Source: Gammaproteobacteria bacterium
GTDB lineage: Bacteria > Pseudomonadota > Gammaproteobacteria > Eutrophobiales > Eutrophobiaceae
Direction: 5' to 3'
Length of the DNA: 64,000 bases
Assembly (NCBI GenBank): GCA_965116495.1
Contig: OZ220696.1
Location: 1,408,001-1,472,000, forward strand
Position numbers and translations under genes: made by a program. Positions 21,320-39,533 of this stretch are shown here, piece by piece; positions within the stretch are counted from its first letter, which is position 1; the number at the start of each line of letters is the position of its first letter. Below the pieces are notes generated by a model, which was given only the letters and a program-made list of their open reading frames with translations, did not search any database and was not told the origin of the DNA.

Positions 21320-21586
21320 GTGACATGGACTGTTTACCTGACCAGAAAGGCGGATAAACAACTGGCAAAGTTGCCAAAAATGATGCGGGTTTTGGCAGAA
21401 CTTGCCGTGACTGACATGGAGGAGCAGGGTGTTAACCCTGTGGGATGGGATACTTTGAAAACCGGCAAAGATGAATATCGTCTGTGTCTGAATTACAGGT
21501 ATCGAATGCGTTATCGCGTAACGCCGGAACGTACCTTGAGGGTAGAAGTATTTTATATCGGACATCGACGGGAGGCTTATAGATGA
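21320..21586 (+). CDS. RelE/ParE family type II toxin
   Basis: WTVYLTRKADKQLAKLP...YRL...YRMRY...VEVFYIGHRREAY. Confidence 0.82.
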   Translation: MTWTVYLTRKADKQLAKLPKMMRVLAELAVTDMEEQGVNPVGWDTLKTGKDEYRLCLNYRYRMRYRVTPERTLRVEVFYIGHRREAYR

Positions 21587-21954
21587 GTCATACATCGAAT
21601 ATTCAACACGATTTGAGAAAGGTGTCCGTGGGGCCTGCCGGAAAAACGGAACGAGTACCCCTGAAAAATATGACCAGCCCAAGCATAGAGAAATACTTGG
21701 AGGATGAGCTTGTACCCGCGCAAACGTTGCATGACGAAATCAGACAGCGCTATGGCGATGCTTATAGAACCCCGGGGTACTATCTGAGATTGTATCGCCT
21801 ACGGGCAGACTTGACCCAGGTACAACTGGCAGGCCAAGCAGGTATCCGCCAGCGCCACATCTCTGAGATGGAAAATAACAAACGGTCTATAGACAAAACG
21901 CTGGCCAGAAAGTTAGCGCATATTCTGGACTTCGATTACCGCAAGCTGATATAA
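21583..21954 (+). CDS. Xre-family HTH antitoxin (HigA-like, toxin-first order)
   Basis: C-terminal HTH LRLYRLRADLTQVQLAGQAGIRQRHISEMENNKR; ATGA overlap with the toxin. Confidence 0.82.
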   Translation: MSHTSNIQHDLRKVSVGPAGKTERVPLKNMTSPSIEKYLEDELVPAQTLHDEIRQRYGDAYRTPGYYLRLYRLRADLTQVQLAGQAGIRQRHISEMENNKRSIDKTLARKLAHILDFDYRKLI

Positions 21955-26859: not shown

Positions 26860-26937
26860 AATGCTGGAAAGGTCTATGTTAGGAAGTTGAATATCCGGCC
26901 ACGGAGTTGCTTGAATGTTTTGGCCGCTTCCAGACTT

Positions 26938-29900
26938 TCAATGCGGGAGACACGGTCCATCTTCCCGCTTGGCTTCTTCCTCATAGTCTTTCGCCGCACG
27001 TCGAAGTGAAGCGGCGGTTTTTGGCCACTCCATCTCGCATTGATTCGCAAATCGATGATATTTCCCGGCAAGTTCATTTTCTCGTAACCCTTTCCCTTCA
27101 AAACGGACGCTGCCGTTTTTATTATATATCCCAACTCTAAATCCTCGGGCTAAAGCATCGCTGTCGAATTCATCGATAACGTCACGGACCGGATTACTCG
27201 GCCACTCATCTTTACCTTCCGGCTCCTGCGCCAGTACCTCGCCGATACGCTCATCACATACTTCCAGGTGACCTGATTCTTCACATTTTTCTCTGGCGAT
27301 CCTTACCCAATCCATAAGTTCCTGTTCATTGATCAGCCCATCGTTGTTCATGCCGGGTATCATCTTCCATTGAGTTAACAACACATACGCTTGATGCGCT
27401 CGTGCTTTGTCCCGCTCTGTGAAAGCTTGCCGGTTATCTTCCGGCTTTTTGTCCGAGTGAAAAACCGTCCGGATGAGTCGACAAAAGAATTCGGGGTCCT
27501 GTTGTAATGATTTTTCCAGTGTTACCGGAGATGATCCACTGTATTCATCCAGAAATTCAAGGTAGACCCACTCCAATTCAGTGAGTCTGATCGTATCTGT
27601 ATCAGAGCATCTTTCTTGTAGATATTTAAATAATTCCTGGATTTTGTATTTGATATCACTCTCTGTTACTTCTTCAAGGCTAATTTGAATTTGCCCCTTC
27701 CGTGCAGTTTCTAATGTCTCCAGTGTTTTGATAACCAGATCCGGGTCAATCTCGCATCCGTCATACAAAGCCATATTCAATATGTCAATGGCTTTAAGAG
27801 GATGTCCATAGTGGATTAATTTTGTTACCGCGAACTCAACGTCTTCTTTGCTGCCATCACGAACAAAGTCTCTAACGTGTCCCCAATAAACAGACCTGGC
27901 CTTAGAATTCTGTTTTTCTACCCATACCCAGGTTTCTCGTTTGAAGGGCAATACAGATAAAAACAATCCGGATTGTTCCGGTTGCCATGCCTTCAGGGGA
28001 AGTACTTCAACCCAATCCCAGTCTTTTTGCTCAAACAGTGCGCGGACGATACCAGCTGTAAATTCTTTCTCACGTTCATTATCCGAAGTCAGCAAAGCAG
28101 GAATGACGTCATCAGTATCGTTATAGAGTGCGCTACGCACATAACCATTGCCCACGATATCCGGACGACCGGATTCTTTGGCAAGCTTGAGAATTTCTTT
28201 TATTCCCCCATCCTCGTATATTTCCTGCAAAGCCTGAGCCCTGATTTGATAAATTGCTTCCTCTCGCTGTTGCGAGGACGTTCCAAGATTCATGTAGCCA
28301 TCGGGATAAGACGCAAATAACCAAAGGTGCCTGGCGACCAGATCAACGGGCTCGAAACGGTTTTGCAGGGTCTCCAGCCTGTTGGCAATATTTGGCGGTA
28401 TAGCTCTTTTTTTGTCTGATGCACGGGTTTTTATTACCTGTTTTCTTATGCTTTCCGTTATTTTTCTCCTGACTACCGTATCCAATTCTGTCAGGTCCCA
28501 CTGTTCCAGTCGATCAAACAGTTGTTTTTGTGTAGCTTGCGGGAGATGGTCAAACTCATTGAGCAACTGTAACCATCGTTCAATATCAGTTCCTGCCATG
28601 GAAATCAGATAACCTGCACAAGCGGATATCTGTTGCCAATACCCGTCGTGATCAGGTGTCTGCTCCCAAGCCAAAGACCAGTCCCGCCATACCGGCATAC
28701 GGGTATCTGATGACGTCCTTAACACATTCGGCATGAGGCTGAGCAATAATTCCCAGGCTGCTTTCGGGGTTTTTTCGACCAACTTTTTTATTGCTTTTAT
28801 TCTTTGTTCAACGGATGCCGTTGTGTGGGGATGCCAAGGCAGGAAAACCTGTTGCAGACTGGACAGGGGGCTGCTTGACCATTGCCCCTGCGAGCCGATC
28901 TCATATAAGCGTCCAAGAATTAAACTCACCTTAGTAAGGTAAGATGGATTCCAGGCCAGTACTTCTAGTGCGCCCAATATTCCTTCGTATGCAGAAAAGG
29001 CAACGGGTAAAGGAGCATCAGAATCGTTAAACAATTCTTTCAATACAGGACTCTCGCATTTGAGATCGTTTTCGACGGTTGACAAAAATACTTCGGGAGC
29101 CGCTTCTGCCAATTTGGGTAACAAGCCGGACAAAGAAGCCCATAGTTGCCAGGAAGTCTCCTCATTCAGAAGTCTACCCACTATTTGCTCAGCTTTTCCC
29201 TCGGGTTTGATGTCACTTTGCATCGTGCCGTTCCCAGACCTGCATGCCAACAGGACCAGCGTTTCACACATAGCCAAGCGGATCTGCGCGGAATATCTAA
29301 GTTCATTATCGTGGAACGCCGCATACGGCTGATCCTCTGCCGGCAGGTCATGTCTGATGTCCACTTCACCGAGAATTTCTACTGTCAGTTCCTCAAATGT
29401 GAGAAGGTCTTGTCGGGTTATATAGCATGCCAGTAACCGCCATGAATCTTCTCGCGATTCCAGGCTACAATGTTCATGTACACGTAAGAAAGGAGAGTCA
29501 GGTCTATTCAGCCAGAGGTTAACGATGTTTGCATTCTTTTCATACGATTTGCCGGATAATTTTTCAATAGCGCGTTGATCGGCATCGGATATTTCGTCCC
29601 AAGAGCCGACTAAAATAAAAGGTATTAATTCTCGAGCCCTGTCTGCTTCGCTCCATTCAGGATGTTTTGTAACAGGAAAGCGGGAAATAGAGCGTTTCAG
29701 CACGGTTAAACTTCCACCCGCCATGCGAGCGTAGTCAGATGCCACTTGCTCGGTAAGACCGGAGGTCAATAATGCTTTCTTCAACGCGTAACGATCAGGA
29801 CGCTGCAAATGAATTCGATCATATTTCGCGGAGAAGTGGTGATAGCAAAGCAGAACGTGATGACCCTGCTGCACGGCTTCTGTGATCATTGCTGCATCCA

Positions 29901-31038
29901 CGGGTAAATCCGGTTCAGGGATTAATAGTAACGAATTGGGGGATGCCGAGAGGTCTATCCACGCGTCCTTGTCCCGTATAATTAATGTTCTTGCCACCAT
30001 TTCATCTGCAAATTCACGAGGATCTACTTTCAACTCAAGGGTGGCTTCCTGGCTCCTGAAATACACGTGACAAGCAGAAATAAAATCAATTACGTCAACA
30101 GGAGAGGATGATTCAACAGCCAGTACGGAAGGTGCCGAACCCAACCATTCTGTAAACATATTTACTGCTTTATCACGTGATGTGAGGAACACGCTTGCAG
30201 GTAATGAAGGATTGGTCGAAGCGGATAGCTTTTCCCAATACCCCTCAAGATCAACAACTCCTTCCGGTTGGAGGCCAAGCATACGGGCAAGCCAGTTTTC
30301 GACACCTCTGGCAAACTCCAACCATTCCTCCTGGCTTTCGGAGTCGTATACCCTGACATCTTTCCAGATATTCAAGTTTTTCTTCTCCGAACACCATGTG
30401 TCTTTCCCTTGCCATCTTCGCGGTGTGACAAATATAAAGGTTGCCTGTTTTTTGTCCACTCCACATGAATTTTCAGTGCGTTTTCTGAAATCCTCCTCAG
30501 CCCTTCTACACGGCTGCCTATTGACACTCATTTCCCACACACTCAGTCCCGCAGGCACAAATTCATTGCCGCGGGCTGCCTCAATGAGCCCATCCCAACC
30601 CGGAATTTGCACGCATTCAAAGGCGGGAACTTGCACACGAATAAGGTTGTCTGAATCAACAGTACCGCGAACCAACCGTCGAACCAGGAGGGGGAAGATA
30701 GATTGCGCATCAATTCGGTCAGCCCACTGTTCCAACATTACAGATCTGACCCGGGTCGATATTCTTCTGCTGCGGGGAGGTTGGGGCAACCTGTCTACAC
30801 CTTCCTTTCGCGCTAGCCCGAACAGTGTTTGCCGTTCAGTGGATTCAGGCTCCATTTTAAGCGCCTTTGCGTACGATTCCAGGAGCGTTGCAGATCTTGG
30901 CGGGGCGAGAATATTCCGTTCAAGTTTGCTGATGTTGCCCTGATCAAATCCATTTCGGCGCGAGAATTCACGCAGGGACAAGCCCAACGCCTTACGGCGC
31001 TGCCGGAAATAGTCACCAAAGCGTATTGAAGAAGACAT
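26938..31038 (-). CDS. 1366-aa multidomain protein: Xre HTH + putative PD-(D/E)xK-like domain + degenerate NTPase-like/helical region; candidate defence protein
   Basis: N-terminal HTH (RQRRKALGLSLREFSRRNGFDQGNISKLER), then GWDG...GLSVWEMS...DFRKRT...FIFVTPRRW and a long helical C-terminus. Visibly more AT-rich than the flanks. Confidence 0.75.
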   Translation of the reverse strand: MSSSIRFGDYFRQRRKALGLSLREFSRRNGFDQGNISKLERNILAPPRSATLLESYAKALKMEPESTERQTLFGLARKEGVDRLPQPPRSRRISTRVRSVMLEQWADRIDAQSIFPLLVRRLVRGTVDSDNLIRVQVPAFECVQIPGWDGLIEAARGNEFVPAGLSVWEMSVNRQPCRRAEEDFRKRTENSCGVDKKQATFIFVTPRRWQGKDTWCSEKKNLNIWKDVRVYDSESQEEWLEFARGVENWLARMLGLQPEGVVDLEGYWEKLSASTNPSLPASVFLTSRDKAVNMFTEWLGSAPSVLAVESSSPVDVIDFISACHVYFRSQEATLELKVDPREFADEMVARTLIIRDKDAWIDLSASPNSLLLIPEPDLPVDAAMITEAVQQGHHVLLCYHHFSAKYDRIHLQRPDRYALKKALLTSGLTEQVASDYARMAGGSLTVLKRSISRFPVTKHPEWSEADRARELIPFILVGSWDEISDADQRAIEKLSGKSYEKNANIVNLWLNRPDSPFLRVHEHCSLESREDSWRLLACYITRQDLLTFEELTVEILGEVDIRHDLPAEDQPYAAFHDNELRYSAQIRLAMCETLVLLACRSGNGTMQSDIKPEGKAEQIVGRLLNEETSWQLWASLSGLLPKLAEAAPEVFLSTVENDLKCESPVLKELFNDSDAPLPVAFSAYEGILGALEVLAWNPSYLTKVSLILGRLYEIGSQGQWSSSPLSSLQQVFLPWHPHTTASVEQRIKAIKKLVEKTPKAAWELLLSLMPNVLRTSSDTRMPVWRDWSLAWEQTPDHDGYWQQISACAGYLISMAGTDIERWLQLLNEFDHLPQATQKQLFDRLEQWDLTELDTVVRRKITESIRKQVIKTRASDKKRAIPPNIANRLETLQNRFEPVDLVARHLWLFASYPDGYMNLGTSSQQREEAIYQIRAQALQEIYEDGGIKEILKLAKESGRPDIVGNGYVRSALYNDTDDVIPALLTSDNEREKEFTAGIVRALFEQKDWDWVEVLPLKAWQPEQSGLFLSVLPFKRETWVWVEKQNSKARSVYWGHVRDFVRDGSKEDVEFAVTKLIHYGHPLKAIDILNMALYDGCEIDPDLVIKTLETLETARKGQIQISLEEVTESDIKYKIQELFKYLQERCSDTDTIRLTELEWVYLEFLDEYSGSSPVTLEKSLQQDPEFFCRLIRTVFHSDKKPEDNRQAFTERDKARAHQAYVLLTQWKMIPGMNNDGLINEQELMDWVRIAREKCEESGHLEVCDERIGEVLAQEPEGKDEWPSNPVRDVIDEFDSDALARGFRVGIYNKNGSVRFEGKGLRENELAGKYHRFANQCEMEWPKTAASLRRAAKDYEEEAKREDGPCLPH

Positions 31039-31056
31039 ACTAATAAAGTATATTAG

Positions 31057-31112
31057 TTGTAATTATTTTACAAATTTTCAATATGAAAAAATTATTTGTT
31101 TATTTTTTACAA
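31057..31112. promoter_or_regulatory. Palindromic operator-like boxes in a very AT-rich divergent promoter
   Basis: TTGTAA-N5-TTACAA (31057-31073), TTTTCA-N3-TGAAAA (31075-31089), degenerate TTGTTT-N5-TTACAA (31096-31112). Confidence 0.5.
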
Positions 31113-31237
31113 CATAAAAGTTTTTTTATTTAACTACCTAAATATTCTATATATATTATATAAACTCATATATTTGTTAATTATAATATTTTTAGTTAAT
31201 TTCTTTATAAAGGATTTACTTAAAATAGATTAATATT

Positions 31238-32044
31238 ATGTTTTTTTATTATTTTGGTCCGCTGGAATTCAGGTTCTTCAGCTATATCCAGGCTCGCAAG
31301 ATGCAATCTGTCGAAATCGGCAAAATCGGGTTGGAACTGGGATTAACCCCTGTCCAGGAACGTAAACTGCTGAGTCGACTATCCCGCCGGGGGCTCATTA
31401 CCAGGGTAAGACGGGGCCTGTATCTTGTGCCTCCAACCATTCCACCCGGAGGGAAGTGGAGCCCCGGTGAAGCACTGGCATTATCCACTCTGATGATGGA
31501 CAAAAAAGGCCAATACCAGTTATGTGGGCCCAATGCCTTTTATCGGTACAGGTGGACTGATCAAGTTCCGAACCGGTTATATGTTTATAATAATCGCTTG
31601 TCAGGTACCCGAAAAATCGGGCCTGTAACCTTAACATTGATTAAGGTTTATGATGAGCGCCTCGGATCTACGGAAACTGTAACTACCCCTGAGGGAATTG
31701 TTTTAAATTACTCCAGCAAAGCACGTGCACTAATGGATGCTGTCTATGATTGGTCAAGATTCAACACTCTCCCACGTGCTTATGATTGGATATCACAGGA
31801 AATTGATAAAGACGATGCCCTACCGGCAGATTTGGTGGACGTTTGTATCAGTTACGGGAATCAAAGCACGCTACGCCGTATAGGAAAATTACTTGCTGAG
31901 GAAGCAGTGAACGAGCCTTTATTGAGAAAATTGACAAAACGGATAAAACCATCTTCCAGCTTGATCCCCTGGATACCATCTAAACCGAAAAAAGGACAAA
32001 TCGATAAACGTTGGGGAATAATTCTGAATAATGGACAGCTTTGA
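31238..32044 (+). CDS. Type IV TA antitoxin, AbiEi family
   Basis: N-terminal wHTH LSRLSRRGLITRVRRGLYLVP, AFYRYRWTDQVP, RALMDAV; overlaps the abiEii start. Confidence 0.82.
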   Translation: MFFYYFGPLEFRFFSYIQARKMQSVEIGKIGLELGLTPVQERKLLSRLSRRGLITRVRRGLYLVPPTIPPGGKWSPGEALALSTLMMDKKGQYQLCGPNAFYRYRWTDQVPNRLYVYNNRLSGTRKIGPVTLTLIKVYDERLGSTETVTTPEGIVLNYSSKARALMDAVYDWSRFNTLPRAYDWISQEIDKDDALPADLVDVCISYGNQSTLRRIGKLLAEEAVNEPLLRKLTKRIKPSSSLIPWIPSKPKKGQIDKRWGIILNNGQL

Positions 32045-32936
32045 TATTGGAATCAAGATTCATGAAGATAAACCCAGGTTCCGTGAGGTACTGATTTTTT
32101 CAGAACAGCAAACAGGTTTTGGCGCCAGACTGATTGAAAAAGATTATTATTGTTCATTGGTACTACATGATTTAACGATACAAGAACAAAATTCTCTCAT
32201 ATTCAAAGGCGGTACCTGTCTCTGTAAGGTTCATGCAGATTTCTATCGGATGAGTGAAGACCTGGATTTTCTTATTTCAACCGACACTGATGCTACCCGG
32301 CCAAAACGTCGTGAATTGATTGAACCCTTGAAATTACATTTCAGTGAAATACCCGAGCGGTTACCCGGTTTTCGGATATATGAGGGGTTACGAGGTCATG
32401 ATAATTCTAAACATTATGCGAGCAGTCTGTCATATCAGTCAGTTATTACCGGAGAAGAAGAATATATAAAGATTGAAATCAGTTTGCGAGAACCTGTATT
32501 GGAATCGATTCAAAATAAAGCAGCCAAGACATTACTCATTGACCCGTTTACCGGAAGCTCCTTGGTTGATGCAATACCTGTAAACGTACTGTCATATAGC
32601 GAGAGTTATGCCGAAAAGTTCCGAGCTGCGCTGACACGCAGAAATCTTGCGATTCGTGATTTTTACGATATTGACGTTGCAATCCGATCAGGCAGACTGA
32701 CTGTAAACAGCAGCACGTTTATTGCTCTAATTCGTAATAAAATAGCTATTCCAGGGACTAACGCCATTGATATATCCGAAGACAGGATCAATATCCTGCA
32801 TAATCAGCTTGAGACAGAATTAAAACCTGTTTTACGAAGTAATGATTATACAAATTTCGATGCGAAAAAGGCGATAACAATAGTTGTCGATGTAATGAAT
32901 AGATTAAATTTGAATCCGGGAAAAAGCCCGTTATAG
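32031..32936 (+). CDS. Type IV TA toxin, AbiEii/AbiGii nucleotidyltransferase
   Basis: LIEKDYY, FKGGTCLCK, YRMSEDLDF, AEKFRA, RDFYD. Confidence 0.9.
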   Translation: MDSFDIGIKIHEDKPRFREVLIFSEQQTGFGARLIEKDYYCSLVLHDLTIQEQNSLIFKGGTCLCKVHADFYRMSEDLDFLISTDTDATRPKRRELIEPLKLHFSEIPERLPGFRIYEGLRGHDNSKHYASSLSYQSVITGEEEYIKIEISLREPVLESIQNKAAKTLLIDPFTGSSLVDAIPVNVLSYSESYAEKFRAALTRRNLAIRDFYDIDVAIRSGRLTVNSSTFIALIRNKIAIPGTNAIDISEDRINILHNQLETELKPVLRSNDYTNFDAKKAITIVVDVMNRLNLNPGKSPL

Positions 32937-32960
32937 CCCTTCGCTGGCTTAAGAATAACC

Positions 32961-33313: not shown

Positions 33314-36300
33314 TTATTCCGGACCGAAGACCAGTTCGGGTATCACGATCTCCCAGGCATCAGACTTGATGCGTTCCTGGTACTCAGGCTTTGACTGCTC
33401 CCGTTTACGGGTAATGATTGCCAACACTTTCGCGTACAGGCAGCGCATTCCCTCCGGCGCTTCGAAAGCGGTGGTGAGGCGTCCTACCTTATTGCCGGCA
33501 TGGTCAAGTAATTCCCACCGTTTCTTCTCGTTCAGGCATGCGCTGAGTGAGTCACCGGGATGCAGCGCGGCAATATTTCGATGCACGCGATAATGGGGTT
33601 GAGCACGGCTTGCGAAGCCTAAATCGATCTTCTTGAGATCAGGTCGCTTGTAAACATGATAGAGTTCGGGAACAGGTGACGGTAGTTGTACGGGGTCACG
33701 CTGCAGTATGGAAGAATGTTCTTGCAATGAGCTGATGACATGACCCTTTCTGTTGTCAGCCTCGTTAAAGCATAGCAGCGAAAGCGTTTGCCGCGCGCGC
33801 GTCATGGCGACGTAGTACAATCTGCGCGGCGCGTCCCTGCCTTCTTTGCTGTTGCGACTGTCCCATCCTCCATCCAACACTACCACGTGATCGAATTCCA
33901 ACCCTTTGGCGCTGTGGGCAGTGAGCAGCAACAGCCCGTTCTGGCGCCCGCGCGCCGCCTGGCCCCATTCAGCCAGCCATTCGATGAACAGGGTAACCGG
34001 TATATCCGACGCCGTCTCCCCGGTTTCCTCCTGGTACGCAGTCGCAGCCTCCTGCAGCAATTCGATCCAGGGGTTTTGTCGCTGGGCTTTCAGCCAGGCC
34101 TTGAACTCAGACATTTTTACCACTTTCCTGTTGTCTTGCTTCAGCCAGTCCAGGCAGGCCTGGGTTTCCCGCAGACGCCAGAAATTCGGGAGTTCTTCGT
34201 TACCCAACTGTACTGGAATTCTCTCGTGCTCACAGAACCCGCGCACCGGATCCAGGTACTTCCACTCACGAGCAATCACCGCGCAGGACGACCAGTCCCA
34301 ATCTTGCGTGAGACTGGACAGACGTTGCAACTCCAGCATGGCTGCCTGTGCCTGCGCTACCGGATCTTCCCCCGCCGGCAGTAGCTGTACCCTGCCCTCG
34401 CCCACCGGGTCGATTTTGCCCCAATCGCCGCCATGGGGTTGTTTTGCGCGCGCCTGGTTTATCCTGATCGGATGCCCGGTTTTCATCCTGTGAGGCGCCG
34501 GCTCGATCAACGCGTTGGCCGCGCTGATGACGTGGGCGGTGGAACGGTAGTTATCCGTGAGATAGACCGGCTTGGCCTTGTAGTCCTCCTCAAAACGGCG
34601 GATATATTTCACCGAAGCGCCCTTGAAGGAGTAGATGTTCTGGTCGTCATCGCCGACCGCGAACAGTGTCAGCTTATCGTCTTCATCCGTCAGCGTGCGT
34701 CCCGTAAGAGCGGCGATGAGGTCATATTCTTCCTGGCCTATGTCCTGGTATTCGTCCACCAGGATCCAGCGAAAACCGGCCAGCAGTCGTTCTCGCTGTT
34801 CACTCGCATCTTCCGCTTCCAAACCATCGCCACGCAGCAATGCTGTCGCATCTCGCAGCAGGGAGTCAAAGACCGAATCGTCAGTCATATCATGGCGATC
34901 AGTGAAACTGGCACCTACCAAGCGCATCGCTAGACCGTGGCACGTAAGTACCATTACCCCTCGAGCATCATCACCGACCATATCCGTGAGGCGGCGGCGA
35001 ATTTCCACCGCAGCATGGCGGTTGTAAGCCAGTGCCAGGATGCCGCGCGGGTTCTCGCGTCGCACCCGTAACAGGTAAGCGATGCGATGCACCAATACCC
35101 GCGTCTTGCCAGAGCCGGGACCCGCCAGCGCCAGCACGTTGGTCTGTTCCCGGTCGTCCGCGACAATATTTTGTTGTACGGGATTATCAAGATATTCGAC
35201 AATGTTGCGCCAGGATTCCGGCGTGGTCTGGTGTTCAATTTCCTTGCCGGTATCGGGAAGCCAGTAATCCAGGAAATCATCCTGTTTCTGTTTGAAGTAA
35301 TCCAGTGCCAACTCCAGCGCTTTTTTAATATCGTCCAGCCCAAGCTGCGCATAGGCTTTCATAATGTGGATCTGTAAGATCTGACCCAGGTAATGGTCTT
35401 TGAGCGGCGCAAAGTCGGTGTTGCGAAAGCCGCGCTTGCCTTGATCCCCTTGCGCCAGGCGGATGGTCATGGCCGGACGGAATACCGCCAGGCCCTTGTT
35501 CAGGCGAATCACTTCGAGTTCGTGCAGCCACAATAATGCACGCTCCATCAGCTTCTCGGGTTTTTTCATCTCCTGTTTCAAGATGATGTCAGCGTTGAGG
35601 ACCTCGAGCAGCTTACCCAGTGTTGTCTCGGCCAGCAGATCGACACCACGGCTACCGGACGGCAGACCGTCAAGCAGGTGTCCCAACAAACATGCGGCAG
35701 CAGTACGTCGCCGTTCGGCTGTTTTTTCCAATGCCGACCAATCACGTCTCAGTGTTACCCGCACCGTCTCTGCGTCCAGTTTGCGCACTTCGAGGCTACT
35801 GCCACTGCCGTCTTCACCACGGCCATCAGCACCAAGACTGCGTAGAATACGCAACAATCGTTCCGGCAAGGCGTCCTCATGGCCGGCATCCTTAAGTTGC
35901 TGGTTAAGCTGGCGCAGGTGTAGCGGCCAGGCATCACCCTTGCCCATATCCGGCGCCGCCTCGCGCAGGCGCTCGATCAGCGCACGTTCCAACTGTATCG
36001 CTTCGTTCAGTCGTTTCTTCGATGAATGCTCCACGCCGGCATGCACAAACGCGGTCAGCACGGTGTCATTACTGGCGATCCCCAGTTTCTCAAGGTCGTA
36101 CAATGCGGCGCGCAATCCTTCAGCATTCATATCTGCAACACCGATTAACTCATCCGTGGAAATGCCCTCATCCGGATCAGCCTGCATCAGGGTTTCCACG
36201 ATGCGCAGTAACTGCTTGCGATAGTCATCCGGGATAAATGCTTTGCTGAGCCTGTCTTGTGCCTGCTCGATCGAGTTTACACGTAGAGATGATGGGAAAA

Positions 36301-38494
36301 CCTGCACCTGGTTCTCTTCCCTTGACAATAACTTTGCCTCCTCCAGCCAGGCGATAGCGGTGCGCACCCGGTTATCGTCGGTCGCCGAGTCCCGCTCGAA
36401 TTCCTTGTCCTCCTCATCCAGCAGAATCTCACCGGCTGTGGCCACCACTTCACCTTGCCCGTACTTTTTCCGGTCCAGGCGGCGCAATGCTCTCAGGATA
36501 CTGTGAATTTCGCGCCGGTTAAGTCGTCCACGACTGGATAACATGAACTGCTGCTCTACATCGTCCAATGTATAAAACAGCACACAACGCGCCGGTTGCC
36601 GATCCCTGCCGGCGCGGCCAGCTTCCTGCAGGTAGTTCTCCAGTGAGCCTGGGATATCGGCGTGCACGACCAGGCGCACGTCTGGCTTGTCGATGCCCAT
36701 GCCAAACGCGTTGGTGGCAACAATCACCCGTAATTCACCACCAACAAAACGCTTTTGCACGTCCTTTTTGCTTTCCGGTTGCAGACCTGCGTGGAAATAA
36801 TCCGCAGCGACGTCCCGCAATTGCAAAAATTTGGCAAGTTCCTCTGTGTCCTTTCGCTTGGCACGATAAATAATACTGCCGCCCGGCTCTTCATCCAGGC
36901 ACTCTCTCACCATCTGGTGGATATGGGAAAACTTCTCCGGCCCTGTTGTCGGCAGCACTTCAAATTCCAGGTTATCACGCTGCGCCCCACCGTTAAAAAC
37001 CTTCATCCCGATGTTGAGTTTGTCTTGCAGGTGTCCCACTATGTCGGCTACAACGTCCGGCTTGGCGGTGGCAGTCAGGCATATCAACGGTGGCACCGGC
37101 TCCTCACCTGCTTTCTCACGGATGAAGCGTGCCACGTAACGATAATCTGGGCGAAAATCATGTCCCCACTTTGACAGGCAATGGGCTTCATCCAATACCC
37201 AGGCGCCGATCTCGCGCTGGCTCAGCGCCCGGCGCACGGAACGGTTGCGCAACTGTTCGGGGGAGATGAGGAGGATACCGGCATCTCCCAGACGCACCTT
37301 GTCCAGCACGTCACTGCGCTCAGGGAGAGATAACAATCCGTTGACCGCGACGCTACAACCAATCCCATGTTTTTCCAGACCGGCAACCTGGTCCGCCATC
37401 AGCGCCACCAGAGGCGAGATAACTACGGTGAGTGCGCCGGTCTTGTCATAGCGGGACAGGGCCGGGATCTGGTAGCACAGAGACTTGCCGGTGCCTGTGG
37501 GCAGGATACCCAGTACGTGTTCTCCTGCAAGCGCCGTCTCGACGATGGACTGCTGCAAGGGTTTTCCCTGTACGTCTGCGGGTTCCGCCCGGAAAGTGTT
37601 GAACCCAAACCAGCGCTTGAGTTCCTTGTTTGTATCGTGCCGCTCCCTGCACCAGCCACATTTGGGGTCAGTGCAGGCGAGATCCCGCAGGCGACGCACC
37701 AGTTCACCCGCTTCGGGAAACTGGTGGCAGACCCAGGGTGGCATGACCGAGTTGCCCCCGCATACCGACAACCAGGCCAGCGTATAAGCCAATGACCATG
37801 TAAATGTCTGCCCGGCTTGCGTTATAATCTCCCTTGCCTGGATGATGCAGCCACGATCATCCAGGAGTCTTTGCAGCGCCGCCCCGGCCTCCATATCGGG
37901 AGGCCTGGATGCCTTTCGAATATCGGAGAAAACAGCATCGAAACCAGCATCGTTTTCCGTTGTGGCGGTCAACCAGTGCCAGGCAGCCAACTGATCCGGA
38001 TGGGCGCTTACCAATTTGGCCAGCTCCAGGCGCTGCTCAGTGAACACCTGCAAGGCAAGTCGTGAATCCAGATACGGATCATTCAGGCGGCCACGTATCA
38101 GTTGTCCATCCTGGTAATGTTTCACCAGACGGTGGTAGGGGTTGGCGGGGAAAGCCAGGGGACTCAAGCGCAACGTATCGATCGGAGGCAACTTCAACAG
38201 CTTAAGACCCGGTTGCGCGGCGCGCAGGTGAGGAATGTCAAATTCAATCAGGTTATGGCCCAAAAGGTAATCCGTCCCGACCGCCAACTCATCCAGCTTT
38301 GACAATGCCCTGTTCAAGTCTCTACGCTGAGAATTTCCAGGATAAACCAATGACTCATCAGTGTCCGAACGTACCGCAGCGAAAGCATGGATGCGTTTGT
38401 CCTGTTTTCCGACTTCCAGGTCAAGCGAAAGGCAGCAATGAGAAAAGCGTCCCTTTTTATTTAACGGCCGGTTCACTCTGTTCACCGATGACAA
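33314..38494 (-). CDS. 1726-aa fusion: DEDD-type exonuclease-like domain + RecQ (SF2) helicase + UvrD/Rep (SF1) helicase
   Basis: LDLE...GHNLIEFD...DTL; LPTGTGKSLCYQ, LDEAHCLSKWGHDFRPDY, LTATA, VATNAFGMGIDKPDVR, QEAGRAGRD; AGPGSGKT, LVDEYQD, VGDDDQNIYSFKG, NYRS, TAHSAKGLEFD, LYYVAMTRA. Confidence 0.93.
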   Translation of the reverse strand: MSSVNRVNRPLNKKGRFSHCCLSLDLEVGKQDKRIHAFAAVRSDTDESLVYPGNSQRRDLNRALSKLDELAVGTDYLLGHNLIEFDIPHLRAAQPGLKLLKLPPIDTLRLSPLAFPANPYHRLVKHYQDGQLIRGRLNDPYLDSRLALQVFTEQRLELAKLVSAHPDQLAAWHWLTATTENDAGFDAVFSDIRKASRPPDMEAGAALQRLLDDRGCIIQAREIITQAGQTFTWSLAYTLAWLSVCGGNSVMPPWVCHQFPEAGELVRRLRDLACTDPKCGWCRERHDTNKELKRWFGFNTFRAEPADVQGKPLQQSIVETALAGEHVLGILPTGTGKSLCYQIPALSRYDKTGALTVVISPLVALMADQVAGLEKHGIGCSVAVNGLLSLPERSDVLDKVRLGDAGILLISPEQLRNRSVRRALSQREIGAWVLDEAHCLSKWGHDFRPDYRYVARFIREKAGEEPVPPLICLTATAKPDVVADIVGHLQDKLNIGMKVFNGGAQRDNLEFEVLPTTGPEKFSHIHQMVRECLDEEPGGSIIYRAKRKDTEELAKFLQLRDVAADYFHAGLQPESKKDVQKRFVGGELRVIVATNAFGMGIDKPDVRLVVHADIPGSLENYLQEAGRAGRDRQPARCVLFYTLDDVEQQFMLSSRGRLNRREIHSILRALRRLDRKKYGQGEVVATAGEILLDEEDKEFERDSATDDNRVRTAIAWLEEAKLLSREENQVQVFPSSLRVNSIEQAQDRLSKAFIPDDYRKQLLRIVETLMQADPDEGISTDELIGVADMNAEGLRAALYDLEKLGIASNDTVLTAFVHAGVEHSSKKRLNEAIQLERALIERLREAAPDMGKGDAWPLHLRQLNQQLKDAGHEDALPERLLRILRSLGADGRGEDGSGSSLEVRKLDAETVRVTLRRDWSALEKTAERRRTAAACLLGHLLDGLPSGSRGVDLLAETTLGKLLEVLNADIILKQEMKKPEKLMERALLWLHELEVIRLNKGLAVFRPAMTIRLAQGDQGKRGFRNTDFAPLKDHYLGQILQIHIMKAYAQLGLDDIKKALELALDYFKQKQDDFLDYWLPDTGKEIEHQTTPESWRNIVEYLDNPVQQNIVADDREQTNVLALAGPGSGKTRVLVHRIAYLLRVRRENPRGILALAYNRHAAVEIRRRLTDMVGDDARGVMVLTCHGLAMRLVGASFTDRHDMTDDSVFDSLLRDATALLRGDGLEAEDASEQRERLLAGFRWILVDEYQDIGQEEYDLIAALTGRTLTDEDDKLTLFAVGDDDQNIYSFKGASVKYIRRFEEDYKAKPVYLTDNYRSTAHVISAANALIEPAPHRMKTGHPIRINQARAKQPHGGDWGKIDPVGEGRVQLLPAGEDPVAQAQAAMLELQRLSSLTQDWDWSSCAVIAREWKYLDPVRGFCEHERIPVQLGNEELPNFWRLRETQACLDWLKQDNRKVVKMSEFKAWLKAQRQNPWIELLQEAATAYQEETGETASDIPVTLFIEWLAEWGQAARGRQNGLLLLTAHSAKGLEFDHVVVLDGGWDSRNSKEGRDAPRRLYYVAMTRARQTLSLLCFNEADNRKGHVISSLQEHSSILQRDPVQLPSPVPELYHVYKRPDLKKIDLGFASRAQPHYRVHRNIAALHPGDSLSACLNEKKRWELLDHAGNKVGRLTTAFEAPEGMRCLYAKVLAIITRKREQSKPEYQERIKSDAWEIVIPELVFGPE

Positions 38495-38598: not shown

Positions 38599-39051
38599 AT
38601 GGCAAAAAGCACGACAAGTAAAGTATTCAGGCCTGGTACGACAGGCGATCTGTTCTGGCAACAATTAGGTGTACCCGGACGCGGCCCGCGCTTATTCGAA
38701 CAACTGGAAACAGGCTTCCACTACCGCTTCTTTGTTTTGCTGGCCGAACTGTCAGGATTACAGAAAAAACAGCTCTCCACCTTGCTGGCAATTTCTCCTG
38801 CCACCCTGGCGCGGCGCGCTAACGCAGGCCGTTTTACCCCCGCTGAGAGTGACCGGCTGTTTCGTTGCGCGGAAATTCTTAAGGCTACTATTGATCTTTT
38901 TGAGGGTGATCAGAACGGGGCATGTCGCTGGATGATAAACCCAAGTATCGGGTTGAACGGCAAGGCTCCCGTAGAGATGCTGCGTAGCGCAACGGAAGCA
39001 AGCGCCGTAGAAGACCTGATCGGCCGAATGGAGCATGGAGTTATTGCGTGA
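38599..39051 (+). CDS. Xre/MbcA/ParS family antitoxin (DUF2384)
   Basis: LAISPATLARR...FTPAESDRLFR...LFEGD...W...GLNGKAPVEML...LIGRMEHG. Confidence 0.9.
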   Translation: MAKSTTSKVFRPGTTGDLFWQQLGVPGRGPRLFEQLETGFHYRFFVLLAELSGLQKKQLSTLLAISPATLARRANAGRFTPAESDRLFRCAEILKATIDLFEGDQNGACRWMINPSIGLNGKAPVEMLRSATEASAVEDLIGRMEHGVIA

Positions 39052-39533
39052 TTCGAGCCTACCGGCTGGTTAAGCGCCGGCAGTCTGCAACCGCTTTCGA
39101 CGGTGAGGGCGCCCGACGTTTCGGAGGGCGGTGGAACAGCAAAGGACAGGCATGTATTTATCTTACGAGTTCCATCTCTCTGGGGCATCTCGAGATTATG
39201 GTCCATGTAAGTGATTATCACATACTGAGACAATACACCGTACTAAGTCTGGACCTGGAGGTAAGGGATATGATGGTGCTCCCGGATGATGCGCTTCCGA
39301 ACGACTGGCGTGACTATCCGGCGCCGTTATCGACTGCGCTTATCGGCAATGAGTGGTTAGCTGGTCGGGAGTCAGCGGTCTTGTCAGTACCCAGCGTAAT
39401 TGTCCCGTCTGAAAGGAATTATCTGCTCAATCCCCGACATCCGCGATTCACGGTAATTATCGGGACAGCCCGGGACGTGGAGTTCTCTTTTGACCCGAGG
39501 CTAGGGTCTACAGGCATTACCGGGGGATTCTGA
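39048..39533 (+). CDS. RES domain toxin (NAD+ phosphorylase/ART family)
   Basis: AYRL, FDGEGARRFGGRWNSKG, Y...LEIMVH, LSVPSVIVPSERNYLLNP, FDPRL. Confidence 0.92.
   Translation: MIRAYRLVKRRQSATAFDGEGARRFGGRWNSKGQACIYLTSSISLGHLEIMVHVSDYHILRQYTVLSLDLEVRDMMVLPDDALPNDWRDYPAPLSTALIGNEWLAGRESAVLSVPSVIVPSERNYLLNPRHPRFTVIIGTARDVEFSFDPRLGSTGITGGF

Follow-up and report, generated by a model that had tools for sequence, protein, structure and literature searches.

Which function belongs to a protein of 1366 amino acids (aa) that joins a DNA-binding domain to a nuclease-like region and a long helical tail? The gene is carried by a 64,000-nucleotide stretch from a Gammaproteobacteria bacterium of the Eutrophobiaceae (contig OZ220696.1, positions 1,408,001 to 1,472,000), referred to here as the window; coordinates are those of the window. 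A first-pass annotation had proposed a candidate single-gene defence system in which a helix-turn-helix (HTH) domain is fused to a nuclease and a degenerate STAND domain. Judged by profile comparison, the product is a distant homologue of Avs8/PD-lambda-4A without Walker motifs; it is considered to work like Avs8 and is not filed as a confirmed Avs8 member. The best explanation of the locus as a whole, with a probability of roughly 0.62, is an Avs8-like capsid receptor that carries a nuclease and represses its own gene, with AbiE beside it as a separate unit. The gene and its domains are as follows.

26938..31038, minus strand: Avs8-like receptor gene, 1366 aa, with HTH, nuclease, Walker-less STAND domain and helical sensor (open reading frame, hhalign, AlphaFold2, Foldseek)
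30799..31038, minus strand: Xre-type HTH, aa 1-80 (Pfam HTH_31, E 6.9e-6; ratio of nonsynonymous to synonymous substitution rates, dN/dS, 0.19 against the copy in genome G401 of the same genus)
30274..30747, minus strand: PD-(D/E)xK-fold nuclease, aa 98-255, with D149, E169 and D183, the family's K179 being R here (VIA, hhalign 87.7% to the Avs8 nuclease, column counts)
29449..30261, minus strand: STAND-type module, aa 260-530, a nucleotide-binding domain (NBD) without Walker A or B followed by helical and winged-helix parts (AlphaFold2, VIA folds, Walker counts)
26941..29448, minus strand: alpha-helical repeat sensor, aa 531-1366 (helices in the AlphaFold2 model as far as aa 1294; 97.4% against the whole Avs8 sensor in hhalign)

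Relation to Avs8

The open reading frame is real and its translation has the annotated length. One public contig spans the stretch with zero differences and may be the source sample. Pfam and NCBIfam recognised the HTH alone in the receptor, sequence searches of the PDB gave no significant match, and a search of the ESM Atlas returned solely the family's own HTH-labelled clusters. The single PADLOC match of the receptor was faint (PD-Lambda-4_A, E 0.015).

The relationship emerges when the family is compared as a profile. Against Avs8 homologues, an alignment set made of the PD-lambda-4A matches from 401 genomes and their relatives, the receptor family aligned end to end (hhalign 99.1%, E 6.7e-19, 1128 columns, approximately 14% identity). 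A second Avs8 alignment gave 99.6%. Taken region by region, the homology is strongest in the nuclease (87.7%) and in the N-part of the sensor (96.9%), with reversed-sequence controls below 1%. When 36 family members were searched with 5027 PADLOC models, the only matches beyond the HTH were to the two PD-Lambda-4_A models (9/36 and 3/36 members), apart from one weak methylase match; mad1 matches in four members are read as HTH matches, with their positions unchecked. The architecture is thus not an orphan.

The two groups share a colinear arrangement of Mrr-like nuclease, STAND module and helical sensor over about 1260 aa. Two of the PD-lambda-4A matches (L005 and L009) have N-terminal extensions that align with the receptor HTH. 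KpAvs8, too, is reported to have degenerate Walker motifs (PMC13581612). The receptor family differs in occupying a separate, long-branch clade in which Walker A and B are lost family-wide. The Avs8 nuclease has a D..Q-x-K arrangement, whereas that of the receptor family is D..E-x-G/S plus a helix Lys, and the receptor, unlike Avs8, has a fused HTH with a palindrome and a divergent AbiE pair. Avs8A has been described as an Mrr nuclease joined to a P-loop NTPase, with a second gene (10.1101/2025.07.02.662641). Among loci L034-L128 no recurrent downstream neighbour was found except ABC-type matches, the PD-lambda-4B model itself not having been searched; the gene downstream of the receptor in the window is a MarR gene.

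Domain architecture and nuclease residues

Two AlphaFold2 models were made, one of aa 95-1294 with a mean predicted local distance difference test (pLDDT) of 89.8 and one of aa 95-530 with 94.2. From the N-terminus onward they show a restriction-endonuclease fold, then a P-loop-type domain of five strands, helical and winged-helix elements, and finally an extended helical repeat. The nuclease fold was matched by VIA to AF1548 (1y88; Z 9.7, rmsd 2.6, 112 aligned), FokI (Z 8.7) and MspJI (Z 8.6). The following domain matched AAA+/STAND folds at Z 8-9 (2chg, Z 8.9, rmsd 3.5, 159 aligned), and ZAR1-type 6j5t reached Z 7.7 over model positions 167-434; these Z-scores are moderate and cannot tell STAND apart from other AAA+ folds. 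A VIA search with the whole model mostly returned generic helical repeats, the best at Z 10.2, and was not informative.

In Foldseek, the only matches of the N-part model with E<1e-3 were Avs3 and Avs4, while Avs3, Avs4, SAMD9 and Avs5 ranked high among generic repeats for the long model. The fold matches listed include neither an Avs7 nor an Avs8 chain, which excludes nothing. The solved complexes of Avs3 and Avs4 contain terminase or portal, and their ATP sites are intact. Both (PDB 8DGC, 8DGF) share the nuclease-STAND-helical sensor order with the receptor and were the top Foldseek hits for both models; they differ in that whole-chain TM-scores were 0.12-0.27 and that the receptor has no PADLOC match to them. 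The effector-NTPase-sensor layout first proposed, and the nuclease and AAA+/STAND folds expected of it, were therefore recovered in the predicted structure. The long helical C-terminal region is also present, with a length of approximately 830 aa after about aa 530 in the model and not the 900 aa first estimated; this exceeds the 400 aa criterion for Avs.

The N-terminal Xre-type HTH that had been read from the sequence was found by Pfam at aa 6-68, with a score of 26.7 bits that lies slightly below the 27-bit cut-off. The GWDG...WE motif noted in the nuclease is present (G147-G150, W168-E169), with a spacing of x17 in place of the reported x18. Across 150 family rows, D149 is conserved at 100% and E169 at 99%, and K179 (98%), R187 and D183 at 95-98%. 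E169 and S171 align with Avs8 Q79 and K81, which by their numbering appear to match the Q78A-K80A mutant of EcAvs8. The missing nuclease Lys is probably replaced by K179, as judged from these alignments.

The absence of Walker A is equally clear. AESSSPVD of the receptor aligns with GLSGVGKT of Avs8 at the P-loop position, and the Walker B strand reads LLLIPEP, without the acidic pair. A Walker A motif occurs in 1/150 family rows vs 66/66 Avs8 rows, so that the NTPase, apparently inactive as first suspected, has lost the motif family-wide.

Proposed capsid sensing and mechanism

Lee et al. report that Avs8 senses capsid proteins and that the Walker motifs of KpAvs8 are degenerate (10.64898/2026.01.04.697583, PMC13581612). 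Both Avs8 proteins tested there sense capsids (PMC13581612). Of 23 capsid rows, the first 13 show a response of KpAvs8 to ZL19 and Pal001 only (PMC13581612). When the receptor sensor (aa 635-1355) was co-folded with a T1-like capsid, the model score was 0.41 and that of the best control 0.00, a weak pass; the partner pLDDT was 71-73 and the runs agreed in at least 40% of contacts. The score mark was reached by 116/157 solved pairs and 2/215 mismatched pairs, and the range up to 0.60 holds 18 of the solved pairs and both mismatches. The capsid protein used here as a stand-in comes from a phage that infects a different host. Model memory may contribute to the score, because an Avs7-ZL19 capsid structure exists (10.64898/2026.01.04.697583).

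In the proposed mechanism, the helical sensor would bind a phage capsid protein, a likely step to which the co-fold lends weak support. The receptor may then oligomerise without using ATP, and its nuclease domain would cut DNA. The HTH, likely, would repress the receptor's own promoter. AbiEi-AbiEii, which is co-inherited with this HTH clade, would most likely be a separate, self-regulated unit that may stabilise the 6-kb cassette or add a second abortive defence. Of this picture, the homology, the motif loss, the palindromes and the gene linkage come from the sequences themselves, and the folds and, weakly, the capsid contact from structural models; oligomerisation, DNA cleavage, repression, phage defence and the part played by AbiE are inferences.

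The alternative that survives best is a receptor of the same kind that senses another phage protein or signal, although it is considered unlikely beside the capsid reading. Aligned alone, the C-part of the sensor reached 7% and the NBD 1% in hhalign, and therefore the ligand may differ from that of Avs8. Avs families sense 13 different phage proteins, with no trigger found for four (10.64898/2026.01.04.697583), and the weak pass with a capsid from another host's phage fits a non-capsid ligand as well. The N-part of the sensor, on the other hand, is clearly Avs8-like, and capsids were the ligand of both tested Avs8 proteins.

The receptor family and its N-terminal domains

Homologues span the full length of the receptor at 26-87% identity. 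In a library clustered at 50%, the family comprises 3006 clusters at E<=1e-30 and 6173 at E<=1e-3. Its members occur in Pseudomonadota, Planctomycetota, Cyanobacteria, Actinomycetota, Chloroflexota and others, and also on 24 plasmid records and 6 viral contigs. An alignment search was positive in 15/401 sampled genomes of the phylum, a count that includes this genome and two weak Avs8-level matches. The distribution is patchy, with 4/41 related genomes positive.

The N-termini are variable. Of the 268 proteins sorted by extension, 118 lack one altogether; this Xre type is present in 56, a HigA-type HTH in 57 and some other extension in 21, and 16 are partial. In the 16 proteins checked with Pfam, the N-terminal domains included LexA, TetR, HTH_17 and other Xre. 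The DNA-binding domains were probably gained several times, because the extension types need 12 changes on a FastTree phylogeny of 66 rows.

Other arrangements were seen within the family. Three loci (L333 112-3807, L047 8002-11538 and L043 9075-11492, all on the minus strand) and the plasmid matches H21 and H22 keep only the part from roughly the winged-helix region onward, with a different N-terminus; that of L333 may be Cap4-like, and Pfam found nothing in L047 and L043. The member at L071 (5275-10479, plus strand) has an extra NB-ARC domain ahead of the nuclease. IrrE/M78 peptidase genes, mostly HTH-fused, repeatedly adjoin HTH-less members (upstream in L069, L078 and L086; also in L077), where they are possibly a separate regulator.

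Predicted operators of the fused HTH

The receptor gene is more AT-rich than the host, as first noted (47.3% vs 54.7% GC), and the intergenic region 31039-31237 has a GC content of 12%. A generic promoter scan of this AT-rich spacer was not informative. The upstream regions of loci with this HTH have TTGAC, a -10 box and two palindromes in common, and in the window the palindromes are placed as follows.

31056..31074, minus strand: proximal palindrome covering the predicted -10 of the receptor gene and differing at one position from GTTGTA-N7-TACAAC; predicted operator of the HTH
31095..31113, minus strand: second, weaker palindrome (GTTG-N11-CAAC type), situated upstream of -35

The proximal box, GTTGTA-N7-TACAAC, covers the -10 with at most one mismatch at 27/28 loci with this HTH and at 0/128 without it. 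The motif was derived from the same loci, two duplicates were removed from the HTH group and the other group was not dereplicated; one locus of the latter, L152, was mis-sorted and has both the HTH and a perfect box. The second box is found with at most one mismatch in 19/28 loci. All four loci with the HTH and without AbiE contain the first box (0, 0, 1 and 2 mismatches), and it is missing at 5/5 stand-alone AbiE loci (4-5 mismatches). The box follows the HTH and not AbiE, and its interpretation as an AbiEi site was rejected.

Members with the HigA-type HTH have a different palindrome, TGTATTGTGTA-N4-TACACAATACA, which occurs with at most 6/22 mismatches in 9/10 loci and with at least 8 mismatches in 158 other loci. 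Since two HTH types have two different boxes over their own promoters, it is likely that the receptor HTH represses its own gene. The built-in autoregulator proposed at first pass thus gains support from HTH-linked palindromes. In the literature searched, control by an Avs protein's own repressor domain was not found described, nor were the fused autoregulator, the operators or the link to AbiE; the supplements of Lee et al., outside that search, could touch on these points. An Avs8 with degenerate Walker motifs has already been published, and the core of this locus is a distant Avs8-like receptor. The exact operators predicted for a receptor with its own repressor domain go beyond that core, and in this family nature provides a way to examine how NLR-type receptors are activated when ATP plays no part.

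The AbiE pair and its linkage to the receptor

Divergent from the receptor gene are two further genes.

31238..32044, plus strand: AbiEi antitoxin/regulator, 268 aa (PADLOC AbiEi, E 7.3e-21; Pfam AbiEi_4)
32031..32936, plus strand: AbiEii nucleotidyltransferase toxin, 301 aa, FKGGT and SEDLDF intact (Pfam AbiEii, E 3.7e-29)

The pair is organised as described for AbiE: a winged-HTH antitoxin gene comes first and overlaps that of a DUF1814 nucleotidyltransferase, whose motifs are intact. It departs from described AbiE in that one AbiEi subfamily (at least 50% identity, median 63%) stands back-to-back with an Avs8-like gene across phyla. According to one study, AbiEi regulates its own expression through inverted repeats, and AbiE stabilises plasmids (PMC3985639). 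In another, the AbiE of S. agalactiae alone gave no protection against 32 coliphages (10.64898/2026.01.19.700257).

A divergent AbiEi adjoins the receptor at 21/25 HTH loci by script, or 22/26 with L152, and at 0/101 loci without the HTH. The count starts from the 144/160 loci left after dereplication and requires 500 bases upstream, a length that three HTH loci did not reach; because the loci are related by descent, Fisher p-values overstate the association. The gap between the genes is approximately 187-219 bp, and 199 bp here. Two HTH-less loci (L062 and L177) have AbiEii matches nearby. Pairwise identities of AbiEi and receptor correlate (r 0.79, 0/2000 permutations), and four clades are common to both trees, one of them a 7-row clade that unites Gammaproteobacteria, Myxococcota and Planctomycetota; together these indicate, at the level of sequence, that AbiE and receptor were transferred as a unit. 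The single-gene system originally envisaged does not hold for this clade, in which the receptor travels with a divergent AbiE pair. A pattern search of viral contigs for AbiEi gave no match, and one distant plasmid match was found. At L152 (92-4802), two different AbiE pairs lie in tandem upstream of the receptor.

This linkage raises the alternative that receptor and AbiE form one circuit, in which sensing alters how the receptor grips the 199-bp promoter region common to both, or how it touches AbiEi, so that AbiEii is freed as the main or back-up effector. The association with the HTH, the correlated identities and shared clades, and the alteration of a conserved nuclease residue in each genus copy beside intact AbiEii motifs are all consistent with it. 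Co-transfer alone accounts for the matching trees, however, and each side has its own conserved promoter motif. AbiE is absent from most of the family and from four HTH loci, and occurs without the receptor at five loci, one of them at the same chromosomal site. A single circuit is accordingly rated slightly lower than a non-capsid ligand, and the capsid receptor with a separate AbiE unit is preferred.

A broader form of the idea, also unlikely, is that a large clade of NLR-like phage receptors exchanged ATP control for transcriptional self-control. Unrelated DNA-binding domains, among them several Xre types, LexA, TetR and excisionase-type ones, would have been acquired time and again, every one together with an operator of its own, and one sub-clade would have become wired to AbiE, with capsid sensing triggering AbiEii. 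If true, AbiE, whose phage trigger is unclear, would gain a dedicated sensor. The cross-phylum AbiE link makes such a sensor-to-toxin connection directly testable.

Insertion site and state of this copy

The three genes form a cassette of the following approximate extent.

26951..32959: three-gene cassette between ABC permease/MarR and a ferredoxin gene (relatives' loci, contig joint)

At the permease-ferredoxin site in the genus, with 22 ferredoxin loci, the genes are directly adjacent in 4, AbiE stands alone in 1 and the full cassette is present in 2 (G000 and G401). Contig joints in a related strain skip 26948-32959 (the whole cassette), 30733-31531 and 32384-32813; two of the three, including the first, have only 30 letters on the short side. 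These joints suggest that related strains have empty and decayed versions of the cassette. An element of approximately 65 bp (26886-26950) overlaps the receptor's last codons, and the C-terminus of the protein appears borrowed from host DNA because the element is present in four relatives without the cassette.

Such features invite the explanation that the family is a defence receptor of which this copy is weakened or decaying. K179R and L236Q are not found in the closest relatives, the last codons derive from host DNA that cassette-less relatives also have, and in the contigs of the related strain parts of the HTH, the promoter and AbiEii are deleted. Nevertheless, the frame is intact and dN/dS against the G401 copy is 0.29 overall and 0.19-0.36 in each domain. 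The nuclease departs from the family at 3 of 33 conserved positions, and at least 3 departures are seen in 39/150 rows. Decay is improbable on balance, and the copy is taken to be a receptor of the Avs8-like kind described above.

Weight of the defence assignment

The weakest alternative, an antitoxin or ordinary transcription regulator, is very hard to sustain: it has in its favour the database names of many homologues ('HigA addiction module antitoxin') and the resemblance of STAND domain plus HTH to MalT-type regulators, but the label rests on a 70-aa HTH, an N-terminal extension is lacking in 118/268 family proteins, the nuclease residues hardly vary, and the box (at most one mismatch) has only 12 sites in the 4.3-Mb genome. 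The narrower assignment to HigA antitoxins was rejected, given a length of 1366 aa, no TIGR02607 match for this copy and MarR and AbiEi as neighbours. A large family often labelled 'HigA antitoxin' or 'HTH regulator' would thereby be re-assigned to Avs8-like receptors, of which this one is too weak on the PADLOC model to be called.

Several observations weigh against the preferred capsid receptor. In addition to the low alignment values of the NBD and the sensor C-part, HD1 and the winged-helix domain reached 6%, and KpAvs8 may lie outside the receptor family. The canonical nuclease Lys is absent, the family having E-x-G/S where Avs8 has Lys; R occupies the 98%-conserved position 179 in this copy, and the G401 copy carries E169A. 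As to self-repression, the TTGAC -35 of most relatives is degenerate here, and the AbiEi of S. agalactiae binds a similar-looking TGTTG...CAACA repeat (PMC3985639). Nor was the expected enrichment of homologues near defence genes significant. Strict defence genes were found at 7/26 loci vs 1/20 controls (p=0.11) and, with toxin-antitoxin genes included, at 10/26 vs 4/20 (p=0.21). The post-hoc class 'defence or integrase' alone reached p=0.013 and is not counted as enrichment. For this comparison 34/51 eligible loci were scanned and 8 AbiE-coupled ones set aside, leaving 26; the neighbourhood was 4 kb, reading frames of at least 90 aa were cut to 520 aa and categories were assigned by the author. 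The comparison set consisted of 20 stretches of 8 kb drawn at random from 10 Pseudomonadota genomes; two of these were moved by hand to prevent overlap. The putative role in defence is drawn from homology, architecture and patchy distribution.

Directly downstream of individual family members lie a CBASS-like set of SMODS, ThiF and SAVED (L060 12201-16762), a CAP12 TIR gene (L040 12784-13497) and an nSTAND1 gene (L058 12074 onward).

Other variable regions of the window

Several relatives have the ferredoxin and Rieske genes side by side; in the window they are separated by a second variable insertion. It contains a 1726-aa RecQ-UvrD double helicase (33314-38494, minus strand) and an Xre/RES toxin-antitoxin pair (38599-39533, plus strand). 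In a lower-GC patch at 21320-21954 (plus strand), a ParE/RelE-like toxin gene precedes one for an Xre HTH protein.

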